Shown one piece after another: positions 25,499 through 54,962 of a stretch of DNA of 64,000 nt. Numbering within the stretch: position 1 is the first letter of the stretch; each line of letters starts with the position of its first letter. Source of the stretch: Atractiella rhizophila (lineage: Eukaryota); the NCBI GenBank assembly GCA_021432655.1, contig MU271278.1:1-64000 (forward strand), given 5' to 3'. The notes under the pieces were generated by a model that was not told the origin of the DNA, made no database searches, and saw only the letters and a program-made list of their open reading frames with translations. The position numbers were made by a program, and so were the translations under genes.

Positions 25499-26029
25499 GA
25501 GACTGAATTGTCTTGCGAAGTAAAGCAATGAGGCAGTACTGCCACTTGCGGACGCGCTTCTCACATCCTAGAACATTCAAAGACGGGCATACACAACGTA
25601 TTCGTGTCATAAGAGGGAAAATGCGTGACGCACCCGTAGCACCTTCTCGAGCGTGGGCTCCCAGGGTCGTGCCACAGCTAGTGGTCGCATCTGGGCTGCA
25701 TTTTTGACACCACGTTCTATAGCAGCGATATCCATCTTGATTGAGATCTCGCTACCCAACGCTCTCGAATCCACTTCAATCAGCTCAATCCTCCTTGTCT
25801 TGCCCCTGCCCTCCCTTTTGCGAGCCTCGCGGCATCCAGTCTGCGCGATCGCGCGCAGATTCACGCAACTTGTTTTGCACCACCAAGGTGCGAACCTTGG
25901 AAAAAGCGTTGGACCCTGTGGATGAAAGCTTAGCTGACTTAGACTAGTTGAAAGTCCACGAGCGCAATGATGACAATCCAGCTTCGTTGTAGAATGGGAC
26001 TACATAAACGTCACTCTTTGACAGGCACT

Positions 26030-26762
26030 TCATTTCTTCAACTTCTCCCCTTCGTCCAACACTGACTTAGCGCTGACTACCTCGGCAAATTCTCCATCGA
26101 TCAAACTCATCTCCACGTTGTGAACCGTCATCGCGCTCCAAGCGTTTCCATCTCTCCAATCACCTTTTCCCTTCATCTTCTCCCCATAAATCCACACCGG
26201 AAACGTGCCACAAGCGTCCTCGACCACCCAAACTTTGTACCCTTCGTCCGTTGCCGCTCTCGCAGCGGAGGAGACGCAATGGACGGAAGACATGCCGACG
26301 ATGATGAGGTTGTCGATCTTCTTTGCCTTGTGGGCGGGATGGGAAGACAATAGATCAACCAGGGTTTTGCCCTTCAAAGATGATGGGTGCGCGACCTGTC
26401 CCTTGAACGCCGAACTAGTATGTTTCTGCACGATCGGCTCGTCCGGCAGAGGAGCAGCGAAATCGAGTGGCTGCACGTTCGTCGTGTTGCCCTCATAGAA
26501 AGAGTCTTCCGGGTCTTTCCCAAGGTGGTGCACGTGGATGATAGGCAGATTGTGTGAGCGGAAGAGGGCAAGGATTGAGGTTACATTTGAGCCGAGCGAT
26601 TCCCAGGTGGAGGAGAATTGCCGTCCGATGAAATCGGGAGATTGGAAAGCCTGTACCATACCATTCGCGTCAGCAATTGGAAGTTGAAGTGGATTGGGTA
26701 TGTACCTTTTGCAGATCGATCACTATGAGCACCGACGACTCAAAAGACGAAGGAAGTGGCAT
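26030..26762 (-). CDS. Isochorismatase-family cysteine hydrolase
   Basis: LIVIDLQK (Asp), VQKHTSSAF (Lys), GMSSVHCVSSAARAATDEGY (Cys), VVEDAC; one intron near the 5' end. Confidence 0.92.
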
Positions 26763-27178
26763 GTTTGCTCACTTCTGATGGGGAAGCTTGAAATCGAGTT
26801 GTTCTGAGGTTCTGAGGAAGACAGCGGCAGTATCGCATCAGAATTCCATGGGGATTTAGATCTTTGCTCCCTTTTATGCCTCAAGGACCCACAAGGAACT
26901 GATCAACAATGCGGATGGGAGGACAAACGCGACGCGAAATTGACTTGAACAGGCTCTTGTATTGCACAACAGGAAGAACCTTACTGTAAAACCTGTAGGA
27001 AAGACACGTCAACCAAAAGGCTGTTAAAGGCTCGTAAAAGCAAGAACTTAAGTGGTGGACTTGGTGATCCCAATACTAACATTCATTCGTCACGTGGCTT
27101 TGGAAAGTTTCGAAAGCAGCCTTCAGTGCGTTTCTATTCTTCCTTCTGTCTTCGCTAACAATCCTTGGAATCTTAGGA

Positions 27179-28330
27179 ATGTCACACCGTTTCTTCTTTC
27201 CCACACGACGGCTGGGGACGCTCTCCATCCCTCTCCCAAAAGCAAGGCGCATTACCCAGCCTTTTTCAGCGCCAGCATACTTCAGCCGCTCATTCATCCC
27301 TCGCGGCCATGCATCTCCTCCTTCCGACCCTCCCACGCCCTCTTCAAGCTCATCCGCCGCTTCGTCTAGCAGCACCAGCCTCAGCACCATCCCGGCCCCC
27401 CTCCTCGAGCTTGGATACCGTCCCCTGCCCCCTCACACGCTCTCTTCCCTCTTCTCCGCCTACCGTTCCCTCGCAAAAGACCGCCTCCTCGTTCTCGTCA
27501 CACTTACCACAATGTCAGGATACGCTTTGGCGCCAGCGTCCTCCTTCGCCGACCTCAGTTCGCTATCCACCCTCGCAGCCCTCACAGCAGGCACTTGCCT
27601 GTGCATTGCGAGCGCGAACGCCATCAACCAACTTGTGGAGGTGCCTTACGATGCTCAGATGGCTCGTACACGTGGACGGGTGCTCGTCCGTCGTCTACTC
27701 TCCCCTGCACATGCGGGGGGTTTCGCATTAACCACTGGAGTGCTGGGCACTGGGATCCTAGCGGCATTCACCAATCCTCTCACTGCGGCCTTGGGAGCGG
27801 GAAACATCGTCCTCTACGCCGGGATATACACCTCCCTCAAGCGCATCACGCCATTCAACACCCATGTAGGCTCACTCGTAGGCGCCATCCCTCCTTTAAT
27901 GGGTTGGACAGCGGCCACGAATGCGATAGGCGACTGGAGAGCGTGGATTGTTCCCGCGATACTGTACATCTGGCAATTCCCACATTTCAACTCACTTTCT
28001 TCTTCCCTCGCCAGTTCGTACGCCCAAGCAGGGTACAGAATGTACGCTTGCCTTTCCCCACGGAAAAACAAGGCTATGGCTCTCCGTTATGCGCTCCTTC
28101 TCTTCCCTCTATGCTCATATGCCGCGCCAGCGGTAGGCATAGTCACTTGGTCATTTGCGTTGTGGAGCGCAATACCAAATGCGGCGTTGGCGGGATGCGC
28201 GTTGAGGTGGTGGATGTGGAGTGAGGAGAAGTGGGCGAGGTATACGTTTTGGGCTTCGCTTGTCCACCTGGCGGTGGTAAGTGGCTATTCCTTCCTTCCT
28301 CGTAGCGTGTCAGGCGTCACCAAGTTATAG
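27179..28330 (+). CDS. COX10: Protoheme IX farnesyltransferase (heme O synthase); true 3' end uncertain
   Basis: Arg/Ser-rich presequence, ANAINQLVEVPYDAQMARTRGR, YTSLKR, VGSLVGAIPPLMGW, WQFPHFNSL, YAQAGYRM, FWASLVHL. Confidence 0.93.
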   Translation: MSHRFFFPTRRLGTLSIPLPKARRITQPFSAPAYFSRSFIPRGHASPPSDPPTPSSSSSAASSSSTSLSTIPAPLLELGYRPLPPHTLSSLFSAYRSLAKDRLLVLVTLTTMSGYALAPASSFADLSSLSTLAALTAGTCLCIASANAINQLVEVPYDAQMARTRGRVLVRRLLSPAHAGGFALTTGVLGTGILAAFTNPLTAALGAGNIVLYAGIYTSLKRITPFNTHVGSLVGAIPPLMGWTAATNAIGDWRAWIVPAILYIWQFPHFNSLSSSLASSYAQAGYRMYACLSPRKNKAMALRYALLLFPLCSYAAPAVGIVTWSFALWSAIPNAALAGCALRWWMWSEEKWARYTFWASLVHLAVVSGYSFLPRSVSGVTKL

Positions 28331-30850
28331 TGTGACTGTACGTACCTACCGCGTGACGTCGGTGACCGTCGGCCTCTTGAAAAGGTGACAGAGGATTTTC
28401 CGTATTTGTACAGGATCACGATCTTAGAAGTTAACCCCCGTAGAACCTCTCCGAACCCTTCCAACTTACGAAGAACTGCACGTTCAAGACAGTTTTTGTC
28501 CCTTTTGTTAGCCATCAGGTAAAACTTATCAACTGTAACAGACACCATCTCCCGTGGCAAATCGCACTGAAGCTGAAGTCCTATGCTCTCGTTTGACTAG
28601 AGGCCTTAGAGAACACTTGGTCCCTAGCTTTTCCTCTCTCTTGCTGCTGACAGCGACGTTTCTGCTTTCCGCTTCCTCAAGGTGGCATAAGAAAGTTCAA
28701 CCGCTCAGTAACGTTTGAAGAGCGCGCGGCACTAACGGGGATCCAAGAGGGCTCGAAAAATTGTTTCGCAGTATCAGCTTGTGATCGGAGACTTTAGGTG
28801 CCGCGAAGAAGGGGTTCAGTCGGTCTTAGAGTTAATCTGTGAGGCGAGGAAAGGATGGGAACTAGAAGCATCAGTCCTTGGTCAGGTGTTAGAGCTTTTT
28901 GGCGAGGAGAGGTTAAGAACCGATGAACTCGTATCGCCTACTCCAGGTCAACTATGTTAACTATCACCTGTACCATCCCTCTAGCAAGCCTTGGATACGT
29001 CAGTCCACCTACTCTTATTGCCATAACTTTCGACTGCCCGTTCATAACCCTCCCAACCTCCTCGACTTTGCTTGCCCTCCTCTACCAACCCGCTTGAATT
29101 TTTGAAGCTGCTACTGTAGGTGACCATCGCTGTAAAACCGATGAATTCACTCCCGTACTAGGTTCTCCCTTCGTCTCAGCTAAAATTCCGATGTCTTCCA
29201 CCTCAGTCAAGTTGAGTTTACCTCGATCGTTGAGTGAGGATCTACGGTGCGGGGAGAACAGTTGCATGACCTTCTCCCTTCCTCAACGGACTTGTTTGGC
29301 GGTAACACGGTACATACGGCTGTCAACTTCTGCATGGACGAATCGCTGGAGTTTTATTTACATTAAACTGGTAAGGCGATGACGGCAAGTCTAACAGTGA
29401 GAGTTACACGTTCACAACCACGCAGGTAACTGAGACCAAATCACCTCGACATATAGGGTTGGCTATTTTCGTCTCGTCAACTGTCGTGTGTACCTTGTAA
29501 GGTTATGTCACGATTGATTATATTAAGACAAGAAGGGGTTGGACTTGCTTCAATTTGGGAGGACTTCTACGTAATTCACACTAGTAGGGTTGATGTGTAC
29601 TGACTGTTTGGAAAGAGTATGGAACAAATTTGTCGCATTGGAAGTGGTGCGAAAGAAGAAGAGACTCTTTTCACATTACATTCATGAGACAGGTATGTCT
29701 CAGTTCTGAATTTGCCTGGAAGTTCGTTGGAGGAGGGAAGGTCGAGGTTCGAAAGGTGCGCGAGAGGTGACAGGCTTTTGTTTACTTGAGACGGGATGAC
29801 CGTCCTCTACTCTCGAGTGGAAAGGAACTTTCGGTCGTAGTTGGGGTTGTTNNNNNNNNNNNNNNNNNNNNNNNNNATGTAATGAACGACGAGCTGCATT
29901 TCCATTTAAAGGCTCCTCGTCATGGACAAAGACTTCCGGAAATGCGCGGGGTTGAACTTTCTAACCTTTTGTCCAAAGTGGTACGTCAGCAGACCCCTTG
30001 TTGCCCTGTTACCCTTTGTCTTTGCCCTTCCCATATAAAGCGATCGAAGCACCGCCTTTGCCACCTCTGCCTATTTATCGCAAGATGAACCAGTGTGCGA
30101 AACAGTTGCGACAAGTAGGATCAAGAGAATTCCGCCGCTATCAGATGGACGATAAGACATCCAAGTGTGAATTAAGCGATCTAGGGCTAGCTGAACTCTA
30201 CCGCTTTATTCTACATGATTTCCCTAGACAACAGCTGGAGCAAGAAACACGTGGAAGGCAAGCGTTCAAAAGGTGTGAAGGAGAAAACTCGTCCCTCGCG
30301 GATCACTCTAGACCATCCTTCCGAGCGATCAGCTAAACCTCTCCCAAAAAGGACATATTCAATTCTGAGCCAATCCTCTTCTTCAAGTTATTCGAACCCG
30401 TACCTCAGTCCATGTTGGACCTACAGCCCTTCTTCATCCTACTCGAATTCCTCTTACACCTTCTCCACTTCGCCCTCCCCCTGCTTTACCCAATCTGTCC
30501 AACCTTACAGAAGAGGAAGAGGCGTCATACTGGCGACACCCTCCACACATGGAAACTTCCACAAACACGCCTAATAAACTTCAGAAAACGCGTCCCAAAG
30601 CTAGCAGGAGGAGGCTTGTGTCACTGAAGGGTGAGACGAGGTAGTTCTCACTCAGGGAGGTTCGTCGCTGGCAAGTACCTCAAGCTTTGTCTCTGGCTTT
30701 GCACATTGATGAAGCATCCAGGCTCAGAACTAGCAAGGCACGAGCTGAACACGCCTCTGTAAGGGGTACGGGTACACCGTCCACACTGAACTAAGGGGGA
30801 GCCTTGCTTAGATGAGAGGAGAGCTCGTCTGAGGTCCTGAAATGTCCGGA
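28308..30850. other. Non-genic, probably repeat/TE-derived stretch containing a scaffold gap
   Basis: Abrupt loss of COX10 homology, no intact ORF with recognisable motifs, and an N-run in the middle. Confidence 0.35.
29852..29876. other. Assembly gap (25 N)
   Basis: Run of n characters. Confidence 1.
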
Positions 30851-30916
30851 TTATGACCGCTGAGCTAGTCTTTCCGGCTTAACTGTTTTCCTCTTGGTAC
30901 ATAACTGTGGAAGACA

Positions 30917-32137
30917 TTACGCTTTATTTACATAGCCCCATTCTTCTTGAAACTCGAGTGCCCTTTTAGCCGCTAGCTCTCTTGCTGTCCCTCCTCCGAT
31001 TGGACTGACCAATAGCGATTGGCTTGCCTCCAATCTCGACTACTTCTATCCAAGGCGAATCCCCGTTTCCAATGTTTTCTGTTCGGTAGAGCAGACTGAT
31101 TCCGAGTTTCTTGCAAACGTTGTGAAGATCATTCTGGAACCTTTCCTCCTCACGCTTGGGCTTTGCCTGATAAACTTCTAGCGCGCGTTTCGCTGCCATT
31201 TCCCTCGCTAGACTCCGTCGTGAGCTCTCACCAATTGCAATTTCTTCTCCGTCGATTTCCACCGCTTCGCGCCATAGATGGTGCGGGTGTTCCACTTGCT
31301 CGACCGTCCGATAGCGAAGGTTGAAATCCTGAACTTGCGACAGATTGTGCAGTTGGATCTGGTACTTAAACTCGGCAGAGGGTCGTGACGCCATCTGAGG
31401 CTGAGGCTGCGACAACTTCTCGATCTTCGGCTGTCGAGCTAGGGTCTCTGTAACCATTTCTTTGTTGGCATCCAGGAATTCATCGTAGACTCCTTTGAGC
31501 CACTCAGATGTGAATTGAAAACCTTTCTCGAGCATGAGAGCTCCAACGACGGCTTCGAAGACGTCTCCGATGACGCGCTCGCTCAATTTCATATCAGGGT
31601 GGTGTTGAATCTGATTTGAAAAGCCGAGAGAAACGCTGAGTTGGTAGATGGCGGAAGCCTCGACTGATTTGGACCGTAGCAACTGCGAGTATCCATATTG
31701 AAAAGGTAACATCTACAGCTGGGAAGACTCACTGCACGTTCCGTTAAGCTCATTTCTGGATATTTTTCATGGATAAGTAAAGTCACAACTGTGCACAAAA
31801 CAGCATCTCCGATATGCTCCAAAAGCTCGTAATTGTTAGACGGGTCGATGGAGCCATGAGTGAAAGCCTGTTTACGGAGTTCTGGAGAAAGCGAGTGAAT
31901 AACTTGCCCCAGAGAGCTATCGATCCTAGCTTTTGTCGAGGTATACCGCTGAAGTGGGGGACGCGTGAAACGAAAATAAAGTGGAGGTGTGCGCCTGGTA
32001 TTGAAGGAAACAGCTGAAAATTTGTCCGTTCTGAAGGACGACAACGAAATGTAAGAAGATGAACGGTATGTATAATTGAGGCGCGATTTTGGGAAGAGAG
32101 AAAACGGCGCCGATATTGACCTTCGAAGTTGCATCAT
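30917..32137 (-). CDS. Ribonuclease III-domain protein with two C-terminal dsRBDs (second dsRBD frameshifted near 30990)
   Basis: AFTHGS, YELLEHIGDAVL and GDVFEAVVGAL (RNase III signatures), with one intron near 31681-31730. Two dsRBD-like repeats end AREMAAKRALE and (shifted frame) ARELAAKRALE. Confidence 0.88.
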
Positions 32138-32550
32138 CTACGGTCGTTCATACCTAGATTACCACGTCGAAATCAAGAGTGAACTTCGGTCAAGCGTTGC
32201 AATTTTAGGCTGAAAGAACCCAAGGAGCGTTTCAGTAGGAGGCCGTGAGACGTTCAAGCTCAGAAGGCTAGCATAAACCATTCGAAGATATCACTCTTTA
32301 TCGCGCACGGCTGGTACTTCTGTGCGACAGTCTCCACATAGTCAAGCTCATCGAACACATCAATCAGAGGTGATCTCGTCAAGCCTCTGATAGATAAAAC
32401 TTCTTGTGTTTTGGGCCAACGCCATACAGCTTTAATTACGATGGATGTATAGAACAGTTGAGGCTGCTTGTTTTGTTAGGCTCTTTCTCAATTCGTCACT
32501 CTCGAGTGGTGACGCTGCAGACATTATTCTAGATACTGCATAAACCTCTA

Positions 32551-33098
32551 CTGTGTCGGCACCAGTAGTTTAACAACTATGCTCAAAAAAATACCATAGA
32601 TCCTTAACAACGTACAATTTTGTGTCCAGTTTTGATGGTATTGATACCGGAATGCCCGGAATACCTCATGACAGGTCTCAACTACACTCTCATATATTTT
32701 GGTAAGGAAATTACATCTTCTTCACTAAGATATAGCTCCTCAAATGAGGAGTACTCCTTCCCGATTATGACTCAAGCTGACTTCCTTTCGTTGAGATCTG
32801 AGATAGTCGCGCTGACACTTAGGCAAATAGTTGGCTTGCCATATCCCTTGAATTTGCGCAAAAAAAAAAAAATTGCAATGACACTTACTTCCTGAGAAAA
32901 ACACTGTTTAGTAAGAAAATTATTTTCAGTAATACCTCCAAGAGATTACAACCAAACCTATTACTGTTTAGAGATAAAATTTGCATTGGGATGAGGAGAT
33001 CGCGAATCCAAAATTGTTAAGGGATGGAGTCGTTTTTGAGAGACTTTAATATATGGTGTTAAGGATCTGGTGCTGTTAAGGTTCTGGTGTCAACACAG
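32551..33098. mobile_element. Non-autonomous TIR element (MITE), Tc1/mariner-like
   Basis: Left end TA|CTGTGTCGGCACCAGTAGTTTAACA versus right end (reverse complement) TA|CTGTGTTGACACCAGAACCTTAACA. Inverted subterminal AGATCCTTAACA motifs; AT-rich non-coding interior. Confidence 0.75.
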
Positions 33099-33674
33099 TA
33101 TAGCTTTATATGTTGCGCCAAGCTTATTGCGCGGAAAATAATGGTTATTAGATGGCTCCAACATCCCTGCCTCTACAACGACGTACAAGAATACGCACTT
33201 AGTTATCTCGTGCCCTGTCTCGTGCCTTCTCACTAGATCTCACTTTGACTCTGGCTCCTGCTATCACAGTCGTCACGTCACCCACTGATTGTGGTTGAAT
33301 GATTCGGTGGTCCTAACACCGTAACATTAAGCTCATGGGGTAATTGTTCCATGACGTCACCTTCCGGCGATTGCACTTTCAGGCTTCTCCTTCGCTCTTT
33401 GGTATCTTTAGACTTCTTTAGACTCGGCTCTTTACACAAACGAGTCCAGCGTCTTCTATCCCAGTACCCAAAGTACCCAACGTAGGACCTCTTGGACCTC
33501 CGATCGCCCACGGTGGAACTAGGTTATGATCTCATTCCTCTCAGTGCGACTGAGTGCTCAAAATTAGTGTAATACCAATGATGCCATGCTGCCATGCTTC
33601 CGATTTGCCTTCTGAAACGTGCCAAAAACCTGTTAAAAGTGGACAGAAATGATTTAGAATTGCAGTCAACGACC

Positions 33675-49063: not shown

Positions 49064-52000
49064 ATGAATAACCTTTCCCGGGGCATCTGCTGCCTCCGCC
49101 ATTCCACGTCTTACGACGCTGACGGCAAGGTTGCAAAACTCGCTGATTCATTTCGGAACGAATCAAATGGGAGTCCACTGAAGGTACACCCACTACAACC
49201 TGCGTACCCCCGCGTAACGCTACCAAGTGTTCCTTCATCGAATCAACCGATCTCTCCGCCGTCCACGTCGCATTCCGAGTCCATCAGAAATAGGTCGATC
49301 CACCCCGACTTGCAGATACGGCTGGCGGACATCAAGAAGGTTAATACCAAAGGTCTACGAATCCTCTCGATCGATAATGGAGGCGTCTCTGCATTCTCTT
49401 GCCTTTACATGCTTGACGCTATAATGGAGCAAGTAGCCGATCTTCTTCCTGGGAAGCCAGACTCCCGAACCCTTCGACCATGCCAATTCTTCGACCTCAT
49501 CTGCGGCACTTCGACCGGAGGATGGATTGCTTTGATGCTTGGAAGGCTGGGGATGACTGTCCGAGAGTGTATGCGGGCTTTCAACGAGATCGTAAAGGAG
49601 GTCTTCTCCGAGGAGACGCTTCGTACAGAGGGCTCAGCCGCTTATTCTGACAACGCCCTTGAACGTGTTTTCGAGAGGATCGTCAGAGATTACACCAAGC
49701 AGTCCGAAAGTTCGATGTCCACCGCCTTGGCCGACGTGAGCCTTCCAATGCTCGATCCTAACTTCGAACAGCGATGTAGAGCTTTTGTTGTTGCGACTTA
49801 CCGAGCCAACTCAGTAGTTCCTCTAGAGATGCGCACTTACCCTCTTCCCTCTGGTGGCGGATCTACCAAGTGCTCCATAGTAGAAGCTGCAAGAGCGACA
49901 TCCGCTGAACCGACGTTCTTTCCCCCCATCACTCTCGACAAGACAGAGTATGTACTGATTGGCAACAACAACCCATCCTCTTTCGCTGCTACAGAGGCAA
50001 AGAGGATCTGGGGCGTTGGCATTGAAATTGTTTGTTTCCTCTCCTTGGGTGTTGGTATTCGGTCCGCAGTGAAACTTGGGTCAACTTCGAACGAAATTGA
50101 GGATGCCTTCAAAAAAGTCGTGGAAGACTGCTCTCGTGTCGACAAAACAATGAAGGATGAAATGCGAATGCGTGGGATTGGCCACTGCTACCATCGATTC
50201 AATGTCGACACGCTGGGTGGTGTCGAATGGGACGAGTTCGGGAAGATGAAGGAAGTTGTGGGACAGACAAAAGCTCATTTGGAGGGACTGCGTTATGAAA
50301 TGAAGGTCGTGGCAGAATCTGTAACCCTCGGTACGCTTTGGTCTGCCTCTATCCCTGGACTAATGACACGTCCGTCAGCTCATCCTAAGCGAGTGGCGGT
50401 TCATGAGAAAGAGTCTCTTCCGCCACGAGGGCTTTGCTACGGGCGAACCAAGGAGATTGAAGATGTGCGGACGGCCATTCTAAGCGGTCAGCACGTAGCG
50501 ATCATAGGATTAGCCGGAAATGGAAAATCGACGGTCGCACTCGCTGCTTTACATGACGAGCTGGTGAAAGCTGCTTTCATAATTCGACAGGGCGATTTTT
50601 TAGTCGAGCGACGCTTTTGGGTCCGGTGTGACGCCTTCACTTCCTTCGCTGCTCTCTCGAGCCATCTGTGTTCCCGTGTGTTCACTCTATCTCGCCAGTT
50701 GGATACCACAGATTTGACGGCCGTCGCTGATTTTTTTCGAAGCAATAAATGTCTGCTTATCCTGGACAATTTTGAGACACCTGCACATTCGGATTCGAAA
50801 AGGATGCAACAGTTCTTTCAGGCCTTTGTCGCGGAACCTGGAGTAGGTTCTATTCTCGTCCTTGCCATGCGCGGGCATCATGCGCCACGTATCGACGTGA
50901 ATAGCACTACCTTTGTGCAAGTTAGCATTGGCACACTGAAAGAGGATAAGGAAGCAGCAACCAATACCTTTTGTCACTTCTATGAGAATGGCCGTGACCC
51001 ACAACATGTGGCAGTCACGCAAGACATTTTATCGTGCTTGGATTACCATCCACTGTCGATCCGCCTTTTTGCTCTGAGAGCGCGTCACGATCCTTTCTCG
51101 AGTGCAGCAGTCCTTCTAGAAAAGTGGCAGCACCAAGCCAGCGCAGTTCTGTCACAAAATGCGGATGGCAGAGACGGCACTCCCACTCTAGAGATATCAC
51201 TTGGGTTTTCTCTCATGTCTCCCGTTCTCCAAGAACGGCCAGGCAGTTCCCTCGCCCTGTCATTTCTGTCCTGGTCTCCAGATGGTCTCCTGCTCCTTGA
51301 CTTGGAAGGCTTACTTAATGGGGATTACCGGCCACTAGTCGCCATTCTGGATGTTGGTCTTGCGGACGAGGTTCCTGGGCTGAAGAGACGCTTGCGTATG
51401 CTCGCACCAGTTCGAAAATATGTGAACGAACTCGTTCTGAGGCAAATCGACCCGTTCCATTTGCCAGTTGTGGATTCTCTTCAGCCTCTTGCCAATTGCC
51501 TTTTGATCAAAGCACAAGAAAGAATCGACAAATTTGATGAGGCGAAGAAGCAAGATGCCTTAATAGAGTTCAGAGATGAATATGTGAACCTTCAACAAGT
51601 CATTTTTGACAGTCTACTGCACCTTCCAGAAATGAACAAAAGCATTGAAGAATTCATGTTGAAAAACGCAAACATTCTCCATTGCAAGAGGTTTGATACG
51701 ACACAATTGCTCCGGAGAATGCTATTGAGAATGGAGCTGCCCATCCAAGTGATGAGTCACTTGCAGTTCTACCTTGGAGAGGAGCTTTATTTTCGAGGTT
51801 ATACTGACGAAGCCTTAACAGAGCTGCGTAACTCTATTAAGAACAGTATAACCATTGGAAACCGAGCAGATTGTGTCCAATCCATAGGAAAGATTGATTT
51901 TCGATGCGGAAGGAATGAGGAAGCACTGGAGCGATTCAAGGAGGCAGAGGAGCTGTACATCGCAACGGGAGATCCACAGGGGAGAGCAAACTGCGTCCAA

Positions 52001-53509
52001 TCCATGGGAAAGATTGATTTTCGATGCGGAAGGAACGAGGAAGCGCTGGAGCGATTCAAGGAGGCAGAGGAGCTGTATATCACCATGGGAGATCCACAGG
52101 GGAGAGCAAACTGTGTCCGATCCATGGGGGACAGCAAACTGCGCCCGATCCATGGGAAAGATTGATTTTCGATGTGGAAGGAACGAGGAAGCGCTGGAGC
52201 GATTCAAGGAGGCAGAGGAGCTGTACATCGTGATGGGAAGTACACAGGGGAGAGCAAACTGCATCCAATCCATGGGAAAGATTGATTTTCAATGTGGAAG
52301 GAACGAGGAAGCACTGGAGCGATTCAAGGAGGCAGAGGAGCTGTACATCGCAACTGGAGATCCACAGGGGAGAGCAAACTGCATCCGATCCATGGGAAAG
52401 ATTGATTTTCGATGCGGAAGGAACGAGGAAGCGCTGGAGCGCTTCAAGGAGGCAGAGAAGCTGTACATCACCACGGGAGATCCACAGGGGAGAGCAAACT
52501 GTGTCCGATCCATGGGGGACATTGATTTTCGATGCGCAAGGAACGTGGAAGCACTGGAGCGATTCAAGGAGGCAGAGGAGCTGTACATCGCCATGGGAAG
52601 TACACAGGGGAGAGCAAACTGCATCCAATCCATGGGAAACATTGATTTTCGATGTGGAAGGAATGAGGAAGCGCTGGAGCGATTCAAGGAGGCAGAGGAG
52701 CTGTACATCGCCATGGGAGATCCACAGGGGAGAGCAAACTGCATCCAATCGATGGGAAACATAGATTTTCAATGCGGAAGGAACGAGGAAGCACTGGAGC
52801 GATTCAAGAAGGCAGAGGAGCGGTACATCACCACGGGAGATCCACAGGGGAGAGCAAACTGCATCCAATCCATGGGAAAGATTGATTTTCGATGCGGAAG
52901 GAACGAGGAAGCGCTGGAGCGATTCAAGGAGGCAGAGGAGCTGTACATCACCATGGGAGATCCACAGGGGAGAGCAAACTGCGTCCGATCCATGGGGGAC
53001 ATTGATTTTCGATGCGCAAGGAACATGGAAGCACTGGAGCGATTCAAGGAGGCAGAGGAGCTGTACATCGCCATGGGAAGTACACAGGGGAGAGCAAACT
53101 GCATCCAATCCATGGGAAAGATTGATTTTCAATGTGGAAGGAACGAGGAAGCGCTGGAGCGATTCAAGGAGGCAGAGGAGCTGTACATCGCCACAGGAGA
53201 TCCACAGGGGAGAGCAAACTGCATCCAATCCATGGGAAACATTGATTTTCGATGTGGAAGGAACGAGGAAGCGCTGGAGCGATTCAAGGAGGCAGAGGAG
53301 CTGTACATCTTGCGACGGGTACAAAGAGTACACTTGGTAGAGCAAACTGCATCCAATCCATGGGAAACATGGATTTTCAATGCAGAAGGAACGAGGAAGC
53401 GCTGGAGCGATTCAAGAAGGCACAGCAGTTCTATCTCAAGGCAGGAGATCAACATGGTAGCGCCTACTGCCTTGATCGCATCACGGATATCAAGGCAGGC
53501 TGTGGGTAG
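49064..53509 (+). CDS. Fungal NLR: patatin-like domain + NB-ARC (STAND) NTPase + TPR repeat array; intronless, two frameshifts in the array
   Basis: LRILSIDNGG, PCQFFDLICGTSTGG and AARATSAEPTFF (patatin); GRTKEI, GLAGNGKS (Walker A), LLILDNFE (Walker B) and LDYHPLSI; 40-aa GRANC...EALERFKEAEELY repeats. Main ORF stops at 52165; repeats continue in other frames to 53509. Confidence 0.93.
51860..53460 (+). repeat. Tandem array of ~13 x 120-bp TPR-coding units
   Basis: The anchor agca(a/g)a(c/t)tg occurs at 51865, 51985, 52105/52133, then every 120 nt from 52253 to 53213, then 53341. Confidence 0.98.
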
Positions 53510-54962
53510 ACTGTATGAACGACGGCACAAGGAACAATTCATGACTCCATTGTGAGTCATGTTTTATATTCCACGTTATGTGCTTGGTTAAACATTGACC
53601 TTGCTCCATTGTTATAGTTCTGTAGGCAAAGCACTGATATACATGCGGACTGGTACAAAGAGAACTTTCAAGCTAAGTGAAGAAATGCCAAGAATTGATT
53701 CACGGCCGACTCCATGTACAAGAGAGAAATTGGAGGAAATTATGAATTACTCTTCAGCCACGCTTCTTAATAAATGCAGACACCCTGATCATAACTGAAG
53801 TACATCGTCTTTAAGATCATGAAATCTATCAGGCTTGTCCTTGTGCATTGGCAAGCAATAGTACACATCTCTTAGGGTTAGGGATAAAGGTGGGACCGAC
53901 ATCAGCTGTAGAGGATAGAACCATCCGAGTCTAACAAAGTGGGACTCCAAAGCAAACCAAAGACAAAACAGTCACAGAGTAGCTTCTTCCTTCTTGATAT
54001 GTTCCTCTCAGAACTTCCAACAGTAAATAACTAAGAGCAGGAGAGGGAAGGGGTGATAGGAGGATGTGAGATGACAGGTTCCACCAGAAGGCAAGACTGG
54101 CTAGATGCTGTTTCGCTAAGGCTTCTTCAGTTCTGGTCATGGCGAAGGCTCCTAGAGTGGTGCTCTAAGTTGTTTATAAGTGAAGGAATTGGTGGGGATT
54201 TCCCATCGCATTGTGCAGAGTTGTTATCTACGCTTCAGTGTAGACTGAGGTTCTTTCTTGTCTTTTCTTATTTGTTCCAATGTTGAGTCCCTGGAAAAAC
54301 CAATGGTCCGGAATAGTGTTTCACTGGTGGTCATGGTGTTAGAATATGGTGGGCTTAGGGGCTGGTGTTTGTATGGTACCAGGATGGTGTGGAGAGAGAA
54401 AATGTGTGGAATATTTGTGAAATAAAATGGGATTGATCATGATGAGTTGAAAAATTCAATAAATTGAATAGCTGTGGACAAATAGGAACAACCCAAACTA
54501 CAGAAATATCATATACTGAAACAATAGAACGAACAAGTTGCAACACAATCCAGCCAAAATATCCAGCCAAATAGTTGCAAGATGGAAGATAGTGAGGCTA
54601 GTGCAGTTACATATGAAGACGGTAGATGCAAAGGCTCGCTCTGTATTCAGTATATATGGTGTATTATCCAAGCTCCATTTTGACATCTCCTATTTATACT
54701 TCTCTGTGGTATGAAAACCATACATGGATACCTCTCTAAATGGAAACCTTATGAGCTGTGCTATTCTACACGTGTCCTATAACTCTTTGTAGCAGGACAA
54801 ACTTTCTTACAGTGCATCAGAATGAAATGCAAGTCAGTGCATTGATCATTCGAGCACCCTTCAGCCAGTTACAGATGGCTTGATGGAGCAAGGTCAGACG
54901 ACTAGCAAATGCGGCAGGGATTGCTACGGAAGGTGTGCTCTAACATTAATATATAATTCTTA

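Follow-up and report, generated by a model that had tools for sequence, protein, structure and literature searches.

The gene for an RNase III in the root-associated fungus Atractiella rhizophila raises the question of which kind of enzyme it encodes and in which compartment that enzyme would act. The gene is spliced and lies on the minus strand of the window (the whole stretch of 64,000 nucleotides analysed here, from contig C99 of an intron-rich, 51-Mb fungal assembly), with genes for a Cox10-type prenyltransferase and an Atg22-like protein as neighbours. The initial annotation had treated positions 30917-32137 as a single coding unit. This interval holds two open frames, an intron and a frameshift, and the stop at 30917 closes the frame read in two sister copies of the gene on other contigs (389 aa), not that of the window copy.

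Contigs from the RNA-like runs X3, X4 and X7 (X3 being regarded as RNA on account of its spliced joints) join a non-coding first exon (33199..33281, minus strand, with 33281 not a firm upstream limit) to position 32209 across a 5'UTR intron of 989 nt (32210..33198, minus strand), the GT..AG joints of which appear in three of the four runs; in the two sister copies this intron is shorter, at 457 and 449 nt. Because these three runs join 32209 to the exon above 33198, the region of the ATG at 32137 is exonic. The first exon carries in-frame stops and no in-frame ATG running into the coding sequence, and in-frame stops precede the start in all three copies. An upstream ORF of five codons (32134..32151, minus strand), the stop of which overlaps the start codons, is present in the window copy and in that on C513 and absent from that on C772. 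The coding sequence opens with ATG-ATG and a putative mitochondrial presequence of 65 codons (31943..32137, minus strand), assigned on charge, composition and the lack of any indel or stop in the three copies. The RNase III domain (residues ~75-215; 31443..31915, minus strand), identified by Pfam and by the structure model, contains the catalytic codons for E107 (31817-31819), D111 (31805-31807), D175 (31563-31565) and E178 (31554-31556), all on the minus strand, and is divided 24 codons past the catalytic Asp by a phase-0 GT-AG intron of 50 nt (31683..31732, minus strand), which is spliced exactly in X3 contigs. Two double-stranded RNA-binding domains follow: dsRBD1 (31173..31355, minus strand; PF00035) and dsRBD2 (30940..31152, minus strand), the latter full in the sister copies and deprived of its last helix in the window copy. 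A one-base insertion in a short run (30989..30991, minus strand) shifts the frame of the window copy to a stop at 30966-30968; the stop codon of the intact sister-copy frame stands at 30917..30919 (minus strand).

Translation from a downstream ATG, which the initial annotation had considered as an objection to its own reading, finds little room in this structure, as neither the window copy nor that on C513 has an in-frame Met between residues 2 and 129, and Met129, the next one available, is already past the first catalytic motif. The C772 copy has an additional Met32, and a start there would retain half of the leader. Nor is the gene silent, another objection considered at the time: contigs of the three RNA-like runs cover parts of the region, with the 5'UTR intron spliced. 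We conclude that the RNase III paralogue is a genuine gene, expressed and restricted to its lineage.

Several observations concern its surroundings. The Atg22-like gene is divergently oriented, with no more than ~400 bp separating it from the non-coding first exon (window 33199-33594), and a common promoter for it and the RNase III gene is possible. At the opposite end, a convergent transcript (29880-30935, plus strand), covered by X3 and with a GC-AG intron at 30671-30721, reaches the 3' end of the RNase III gene, with which a sense-antisense overlap is possible; its ORF encodes 225 aa in C772, without a Pfam match, and is broken by a frameshift in both the window and C513. Past an assembly gap at 29852-29876, the window sequence departs from C772 and C513, which are mutually aligned over 9 kb, and this divergence represents either a rearrangement or a scaffolding error. 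Farther away, window 26000-28277 is repeated at 100% on C410 and partially on C165, and window 49064-53555 codes for patatin, STAND NTPase and TPR repeats across two overlapping frames, a combination that we read as an NLR-like gene interrupted by either an intron or a frameshift.

The 5'UTR intron of the window copy also harbors a MITE-like insertion of ~550 bp (32549..33100, unstranded), absent from C772 and C513, that has terminal inverted repeats of ~27 bp with TA at either end, and the ends of which recur throughout the genome. X3 contigs include three cryptic exons derived from this insertion, one of them of 15 nt, and end at 32670; the insertion may divert the transcript of the window copy. 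The public NCBI model, P0001, places its first exon within the insertion and thereby acquires another N-terminus that hides the leader, and the joints listed from the runs do not include the first intron of this model. Labelled 'ribonuclease III [Atractiella rhizophila]', P0001 is the sole close protein match (1 of 718 candidates, that is, the protein itself).

The copies on C772 and C513 are, respectively, 94.6% and 95.6% identical to that in the window and encode intact proteins of 389 aa, against 373 aa for the window protein; the PF00035 match to dsRBD2 is over the cut-off in both and is not listed for C99. Three versions of the gene exist in run X1, since the 5' region yields DNA contigs specific to each copy, at depths of 84 to 103, and the existence of three versions suggests polyploidy, a heterokaryon or a redundant assembly. 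The frameshift base is one of five single-base insertions within 1.1 kb by the gap, which suggests a consensus error, and the splicing of X3 into the MITE-like insertion suggests an impaired allele. K-mer bookkeeping at the frameshift (1.54 vs 1.59 copies) does not discriminate mutation from error, and the absence of window-specific letters from X1 and X3 is no proof either, because public contigs drop minor variants. The window copy is either impaired or misassembled, and the working alleles are probably those on C772 and C513. Between copies, the mature part of the protein shows pN/pS values of 0.12 to 0.26 and is under purifying selection, and dsRBD1 accumulates 3 to 6 synonymous differences and no non-synonymous one.

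Inspection of the nuclease domain bears out the four acidic metal ligands of the initial annotation: the LEHIGD and DVFE motifs hold E107, D111, D175 and E178, which are kept in all three copies and are equivalent to E40, D44, D107 and E110 of Aquifex (numbering as in the accessible text of PMC8136814). The spliced protein exceeds the Pfam cut-offs for PF14622 (45 bits), PF00636 (43 bits) and dsrm. The description of the enzyme as catalytically intact holds for these acids but has to be tempered elsewhere, as the signature Phe is replaced by His and the Glu-Gly of RBM3 by Leu-Thr. Eukaryotic RNase III enzymes use extra Asn and Lys ligands, and the corresponding residues of the yeast structure 7DEY are Ala and Arg in the window protein. 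The structure model, built on a 90-sequence, mostly bacterial alignment, has a pLDDT of 80.8 (42 for a single-sequence model) and is confident over the nuclease domain (above 90) and dsRBD1. It matches the RNase III of M. tuberculosis with a Z of 19.2 and an rmsd of 2.0 over 137 residues, and structural Z scores range from 17 to 19 for active enzymes and from 14.2 to 16.0 for mitoribosomal chains. The resemblance between the two dsRBDs, noticed from the outset, amounts to 51.5% identity over 66 aa, with a score of 146 compared with at most 100 for 144 other stretches, and persists at the DNA level. As judged from this likeness, the pair arose by recent local duplication, which makes the architectural resemblance to Dcr1 of budding yeasts and R3B2 of Mucor convergent.

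The usual roles of RNase III proteins appear to be covered by other genes in this genome. Two helicase-type Dicers (C4/C367), Piwi-domain matches on 5 contigs, an mL44-like gene (C462/C1337) and a small stand-alone gene for a degenerate RNase III-like protein in which Gln replaces the first of the acidic ligands (C162:52850-53670, L020) are accompanied by a more canonical RNase III of the Rnt1/Pac1 type (C13:92236-94600, L078), which lacks a leader, keeps the Phe, Asn and Lys, and has two dsRBD-like domains and a first intron of 432 nt. With these genes filling such roles, the paralogue is free to occupy a new compartment, and the same inventory argues against Dicer replacement. Hence, the non-canonical Dicer contemplated by the initial annotation is unlikely as a substitute for the two Dicers present together with Piwi matches, and its objection that the gene might be a plain Rnt1/Pac1 orthologue is weakened by the more canonical C13 paralogue. 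The 3' part of the latter has a tandem second occurrence ~1.5 kb apart, and a short C13 exon yielded no match in the PDB. No mL57 gene was found with PF14622, all 6 genomic matches of which are accounted for, and matches on C360/C134 were rejected as RNase III genes on inspecting C360. More paralogues may be unseen, because profile searches missed the nuclease domain of the C13 gene. A search for DNA methylases gave a single match, on C133, with no RNase III in the 30 kb covered there, and the search of the assembly for a mitovirus polymerase gave no match and is uninformative, as its controls were silent too.

Neither of the two protein collections contains a close homologue. The search at E<=0.001 returned 23 hits, 22 of them weak; a broader one returned 1783, of which those named are bacterial, and none of 1459 longer candidates was close. 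Scans of viral contigs with P0001 and P0100 confirmed no match, and the Atlas matches (0.90-0.93) are generic RNase III clusters, one of them, with 54 members, mainly from Basidiomycota and no more than a lead. A metagenome motif scan identified 8 loci, a single one of which, L063, is an RNase III; it is fungal-looking and, like the window gene, carries a signature His and is interrupted 24 codons past the catalytic Asp by a phase-0 intron. The third acidic ligand of L063 (455-640) is Ser. In both trees (97/91 and 99/96) the sister of the window gene is P0019, a protein with one dsRBD and a basic cluster and without a leader. P0019 is also the best outside match to dsRBD2, and its own 8 matches in the genome all fall on the three copies; P0004 is a weaker, partial match, and the two proteins look like distant kin of the window gene. 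The intron occupies the same alignment column in the window gene, L063 and the C13 paralogue, where it is the first intron, and its presence in the latter points to vertical fungal descent, for which this shared intron is the main evidence. The trees rest on 132 columns with long branches and leave out Rnt1, Pac1 and Rde3; the first lacks P0012, for which no domain was cut, and the second combines 36 of the 53 rows of the first with C13. They lean weakly to a viral-contig clade and reject neither a viral nor a fungal origin; the 'virus' label of P0011, P0015, P0016 and P0100 is a guess. The best PDB sequence match of the window protein (E 6e-14), L063 and P0019 is yeast 7DEY.

The N-terminus was correctly described at the start as rich in Arg, Ser and Phe and poor in acids; in the window copy it has one Asp and a net charge of +11 in 65 residues. 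In all copies the leader comprises 65 residues with a net charge of +9 to +11, 9-10 Arg, one Asp and 16-17 Ser/Thr, and ends in Arg-Tyr (Arg64-Tyr65) followed by Thr/Ser-Ser, ~ten residues before the folded domain. According to the accessible text of PMC12895284, matrix presequences are 10-70 aa long, positive, Ser/Thr-rich and acid-poor, with an R-2/R-3 site, a description that the leader matches in length, Ser/Thr richness and site. Its first acidic residue is at position 38 with a net +5 in 30 aa, compared with 50 and +6 in the Cox10-type control, and the N-termini of the C13 paralogue, P0019, L063 and the C162 gene have their first acid at 3 to 21 and net charges of 0 to -4. Of 68 ATG-initiated ORFs in the window, 2 pass the leader-type filter, one of them being the RNase III gene. 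Over its first 30 residues the leader has a moderate hydrophobic moment (0.50 to 0.52 vs 0.60 in the control); a second intended mitochondrial control, the mL44-like ORF, is not presequence-like, perhaps because its true start was missed. The contrast between 0 indels in 195 nt of leader (3.6 expected) and 7 in 376 nt of upstream sequence (P about 0.03), together with the conserved frame, marks the leader region as coding. It is more variable than the rest of the protein, yet frame and charge are kept, and none of the 8 to 12 non-synonymous differences between copies introduces an acid. Basic Arg/Ser tails of RNA-binding proteins can imitate presequences, and a long stretch rich in Arg occurs at another place in the relative P0004; no lysine-type basic cluster, such as that of P0019, was found in the window protein. 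Homologue searches of the protein collections did not retrieve a second species with the same leader. As regards the organelle targeting first proposed, the sequence features, the 5'UTR intron upstream of the ATG and the upstream stops speak for it and localization is a prediction; on these grounds, import into mitochondria seems fairly probable.

The reading that we prefer, although we consider its chances evenly balanced, is that the product of this divergent paralogue enters mitochondria and cuts double-stranded RNA there. A fungal single-domain RNase III of the Rnt1/Pac1/Rde3 type would have been the ancestor of a paralogue that gained a presequence and doubled its dsRBD. The precursor would enter the mitochondrial matrix and be cleaved, most likely near Arg64-Tyr65; the mature protein would form a homodimer in which the dsRBDs hold duplex RNA and both strands are cut with Mg2+ bound by E107, D111, D175 and E178. 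The likeliest substrates would be mitochondrial antisense overlaps, precursor hairpins and possibly replication forms of mitoviruses, and such duplexes might be processed or cleared without the length ruler of a PAZ-containing Dicer. That an active RNase III operates in fungal mitochondria in any role has, in our estimation, slightly less than an even chance, and is likelier than a role in defence; the narrower proposal that duplication of an Rnt1-type gene, a presequence and a doubled dsRBD created a nuclease for mitochondrial dsRNA surveillance or against mitoviruses is rather unlikely.

The most serious competitor, which we deem doubtful, would be an Rde3-like accessory nuclease of RNAi or RNA surveillance in the nucleus or cytosol, with the basic N-terminus as an unstructured tail, RNA-binding or nucleolar. 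Of the 6 matches of L063 in the Atractiella genome, the window gene and its sisters rank as the 3 best, the signature His and the intron are common to them and L063, the genome contains RNAi machinery, and Rde3 itself is presented in the accessible text of PMC6643885 as a non-Dicer RNase III that is required for endo-siRNAs and copurifies with nuclear proteins. However, the leader is terminal and nearly acid-free and finishes with an MPP-type site immediately ahead of the folded domain, such a leader is missing from L063 and P0019, and L063 is a putative orthologue of Rde3; a nuclear role has, moreover, another candidate in the C13 gene, which keeps the Phe, Asn and Lys. Capture from a giant DNA virus, or from a bacterium, with later gain of introns and leader, is improbable. 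It would explain why the window gene and P0019 adjoin the viral-contig clade in both trees, without starred support (85/50; 89/77), why a topology uniting the two with 15 viral-type rows escapes rejection (p-AU 0.42), why the top domain identity (41.6%) is to P0015, unlabelled and viral by guess, and why a clade forced to hold the window gene, P0019, L063 and C13 gets a borderline p-AU of 0.058; bacterial enzymes are also the best fold matches, but of a model from a mostly bacterial alignment. Against such a capture, the phase-0 intron in the column used by L063 and C13 would require parallel gain, the trio of window gene, L063 and P0019 withstands both tests (likelihood 1.7 higher with p 0.55 in one, p 0.46 in the other), yeast 7DEY is the best PDB match of those three proteins, and the viral contig scans offer no close viral relative.

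Two further readings take the product away from its presumed activity or its presumed compartment. A structural RNA binder of mitochondria (a partner or assembly factor resembling mL44/mL57), or a single-strand cutter resembling R3B2, would account for the changes at the signature Phe, RBM3 and the Asn/Lys positions and for the failure to find an mL57 gene among the 6 PF14622 matches, and R3B2 illustrates, in the accessible text of PMC8136814, that an RNase III with two dsRBDs can change substrate. Such a protein would hardly be expected to retain the four acids in 3 of 3 copies beside a separate mL44-like gene on C462/C1337, the Z scores of mitoribosomal chains (14.2 to 16.0) lie below those of active enzymes (17 to 19), and R3B2 is described in the same text as confined to Mucorales, with an altered acidic cluster, so that we regard this possibility as quite improbable. 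Least credible of all is a Dicer of the budding-yeast type making ~23-nt siRNAs by cooperative binding: the domain order is the same, and Dcr1 of K. polysporus and 7DEY are among the PDB matches, but the genome has two canonical Dicers, the protein lacks the helical N-terminal domain as well as the Asn/Lys ligands, and dsRBD2 is a recent local copy.

The reading of the gene as a putative mitochondrial dsRNA nuclease can be set against known systems. With Rnt1p, Pac1 and Cryptococcus Rde3 the protein shares one RNase III domain, four acidic ligands, a C-terminal dsRBD and the lack of PAZ and helicase domains; it differs in having two dsRBDs instead of one, a presequence-like leader in place of the N-terminal domain and changed Asn/Lys positions, with ~22-24% identity to Rnt1p in structure alignments. 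Outside mitochondria, Rde3 is the nearest functional precedent (accessible text of PMC6643885), and it is retained in an RNAi-deficient species (PMC8022950, in its accessible part). Mucor R3B2 likewise combines one RNase III domain with two dsRBDs and is lineage-restricted alongside canonical Dicers, but in the accessible text of PMC8136814 it cuts only single-stranded RNA and has an altered acidic cluster, whereas the cluster of the Atractiella protein is canonical. R3B2 is absent from the 31 PDB sequence matches of the window protein, among which budding-yeast Dcr1 (K. polysporus 3RV0; P. stipitis 7DEY) presents the same succession of RNase III and dsRBD(s). The Dcr1 enzymes stand in for a lost canonical Dicer and have an N-terminal helical domain; Atractiella, on the other hand, keeps its two Dicers, and the extra ligands are changed. 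Bacterial class 1 and giant-virus enzymes superimpose with an rmsd of about 2 A over 135-139 residues and ~24-37% local identity, but the Atractiella gene is spliced and its protein scores 87 bits with TIGR02191, below the cut-off of 166, which sets it apart from the bacterial class 1 enzymes. Several mitoviruses are reported to evade cytoplasmic RNAi (PMC7082362, in its accessible part), and we found no report of an active RNase III from fungal mitochondria in the open-licence literature. The RNase III paralogue with a leader is known from one species and, if the postulated activity is true, would be a small, testable enzyme for mitochondrial dsRNA handling and possibly a tool for cutting dsRNA in mitochondria. 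To our knowledge, the only RNase III-fold proteins of fungal mitochondria are the inactive ribosomal ones, mL44 (MrpL3) and mL57, which share with the Atractiella protein the fold and a mitochondrial presequence (putative here) but have degenerate active sites, unlike the four-acid site found here next to a separate mL44-like gene. Active mitochondrial nucleases of the RNase III type do exist in kinetoplastids, an unrelated lineage, in which mRPN1 and KREN1-3 serve RNA editing and guide RNA processing.
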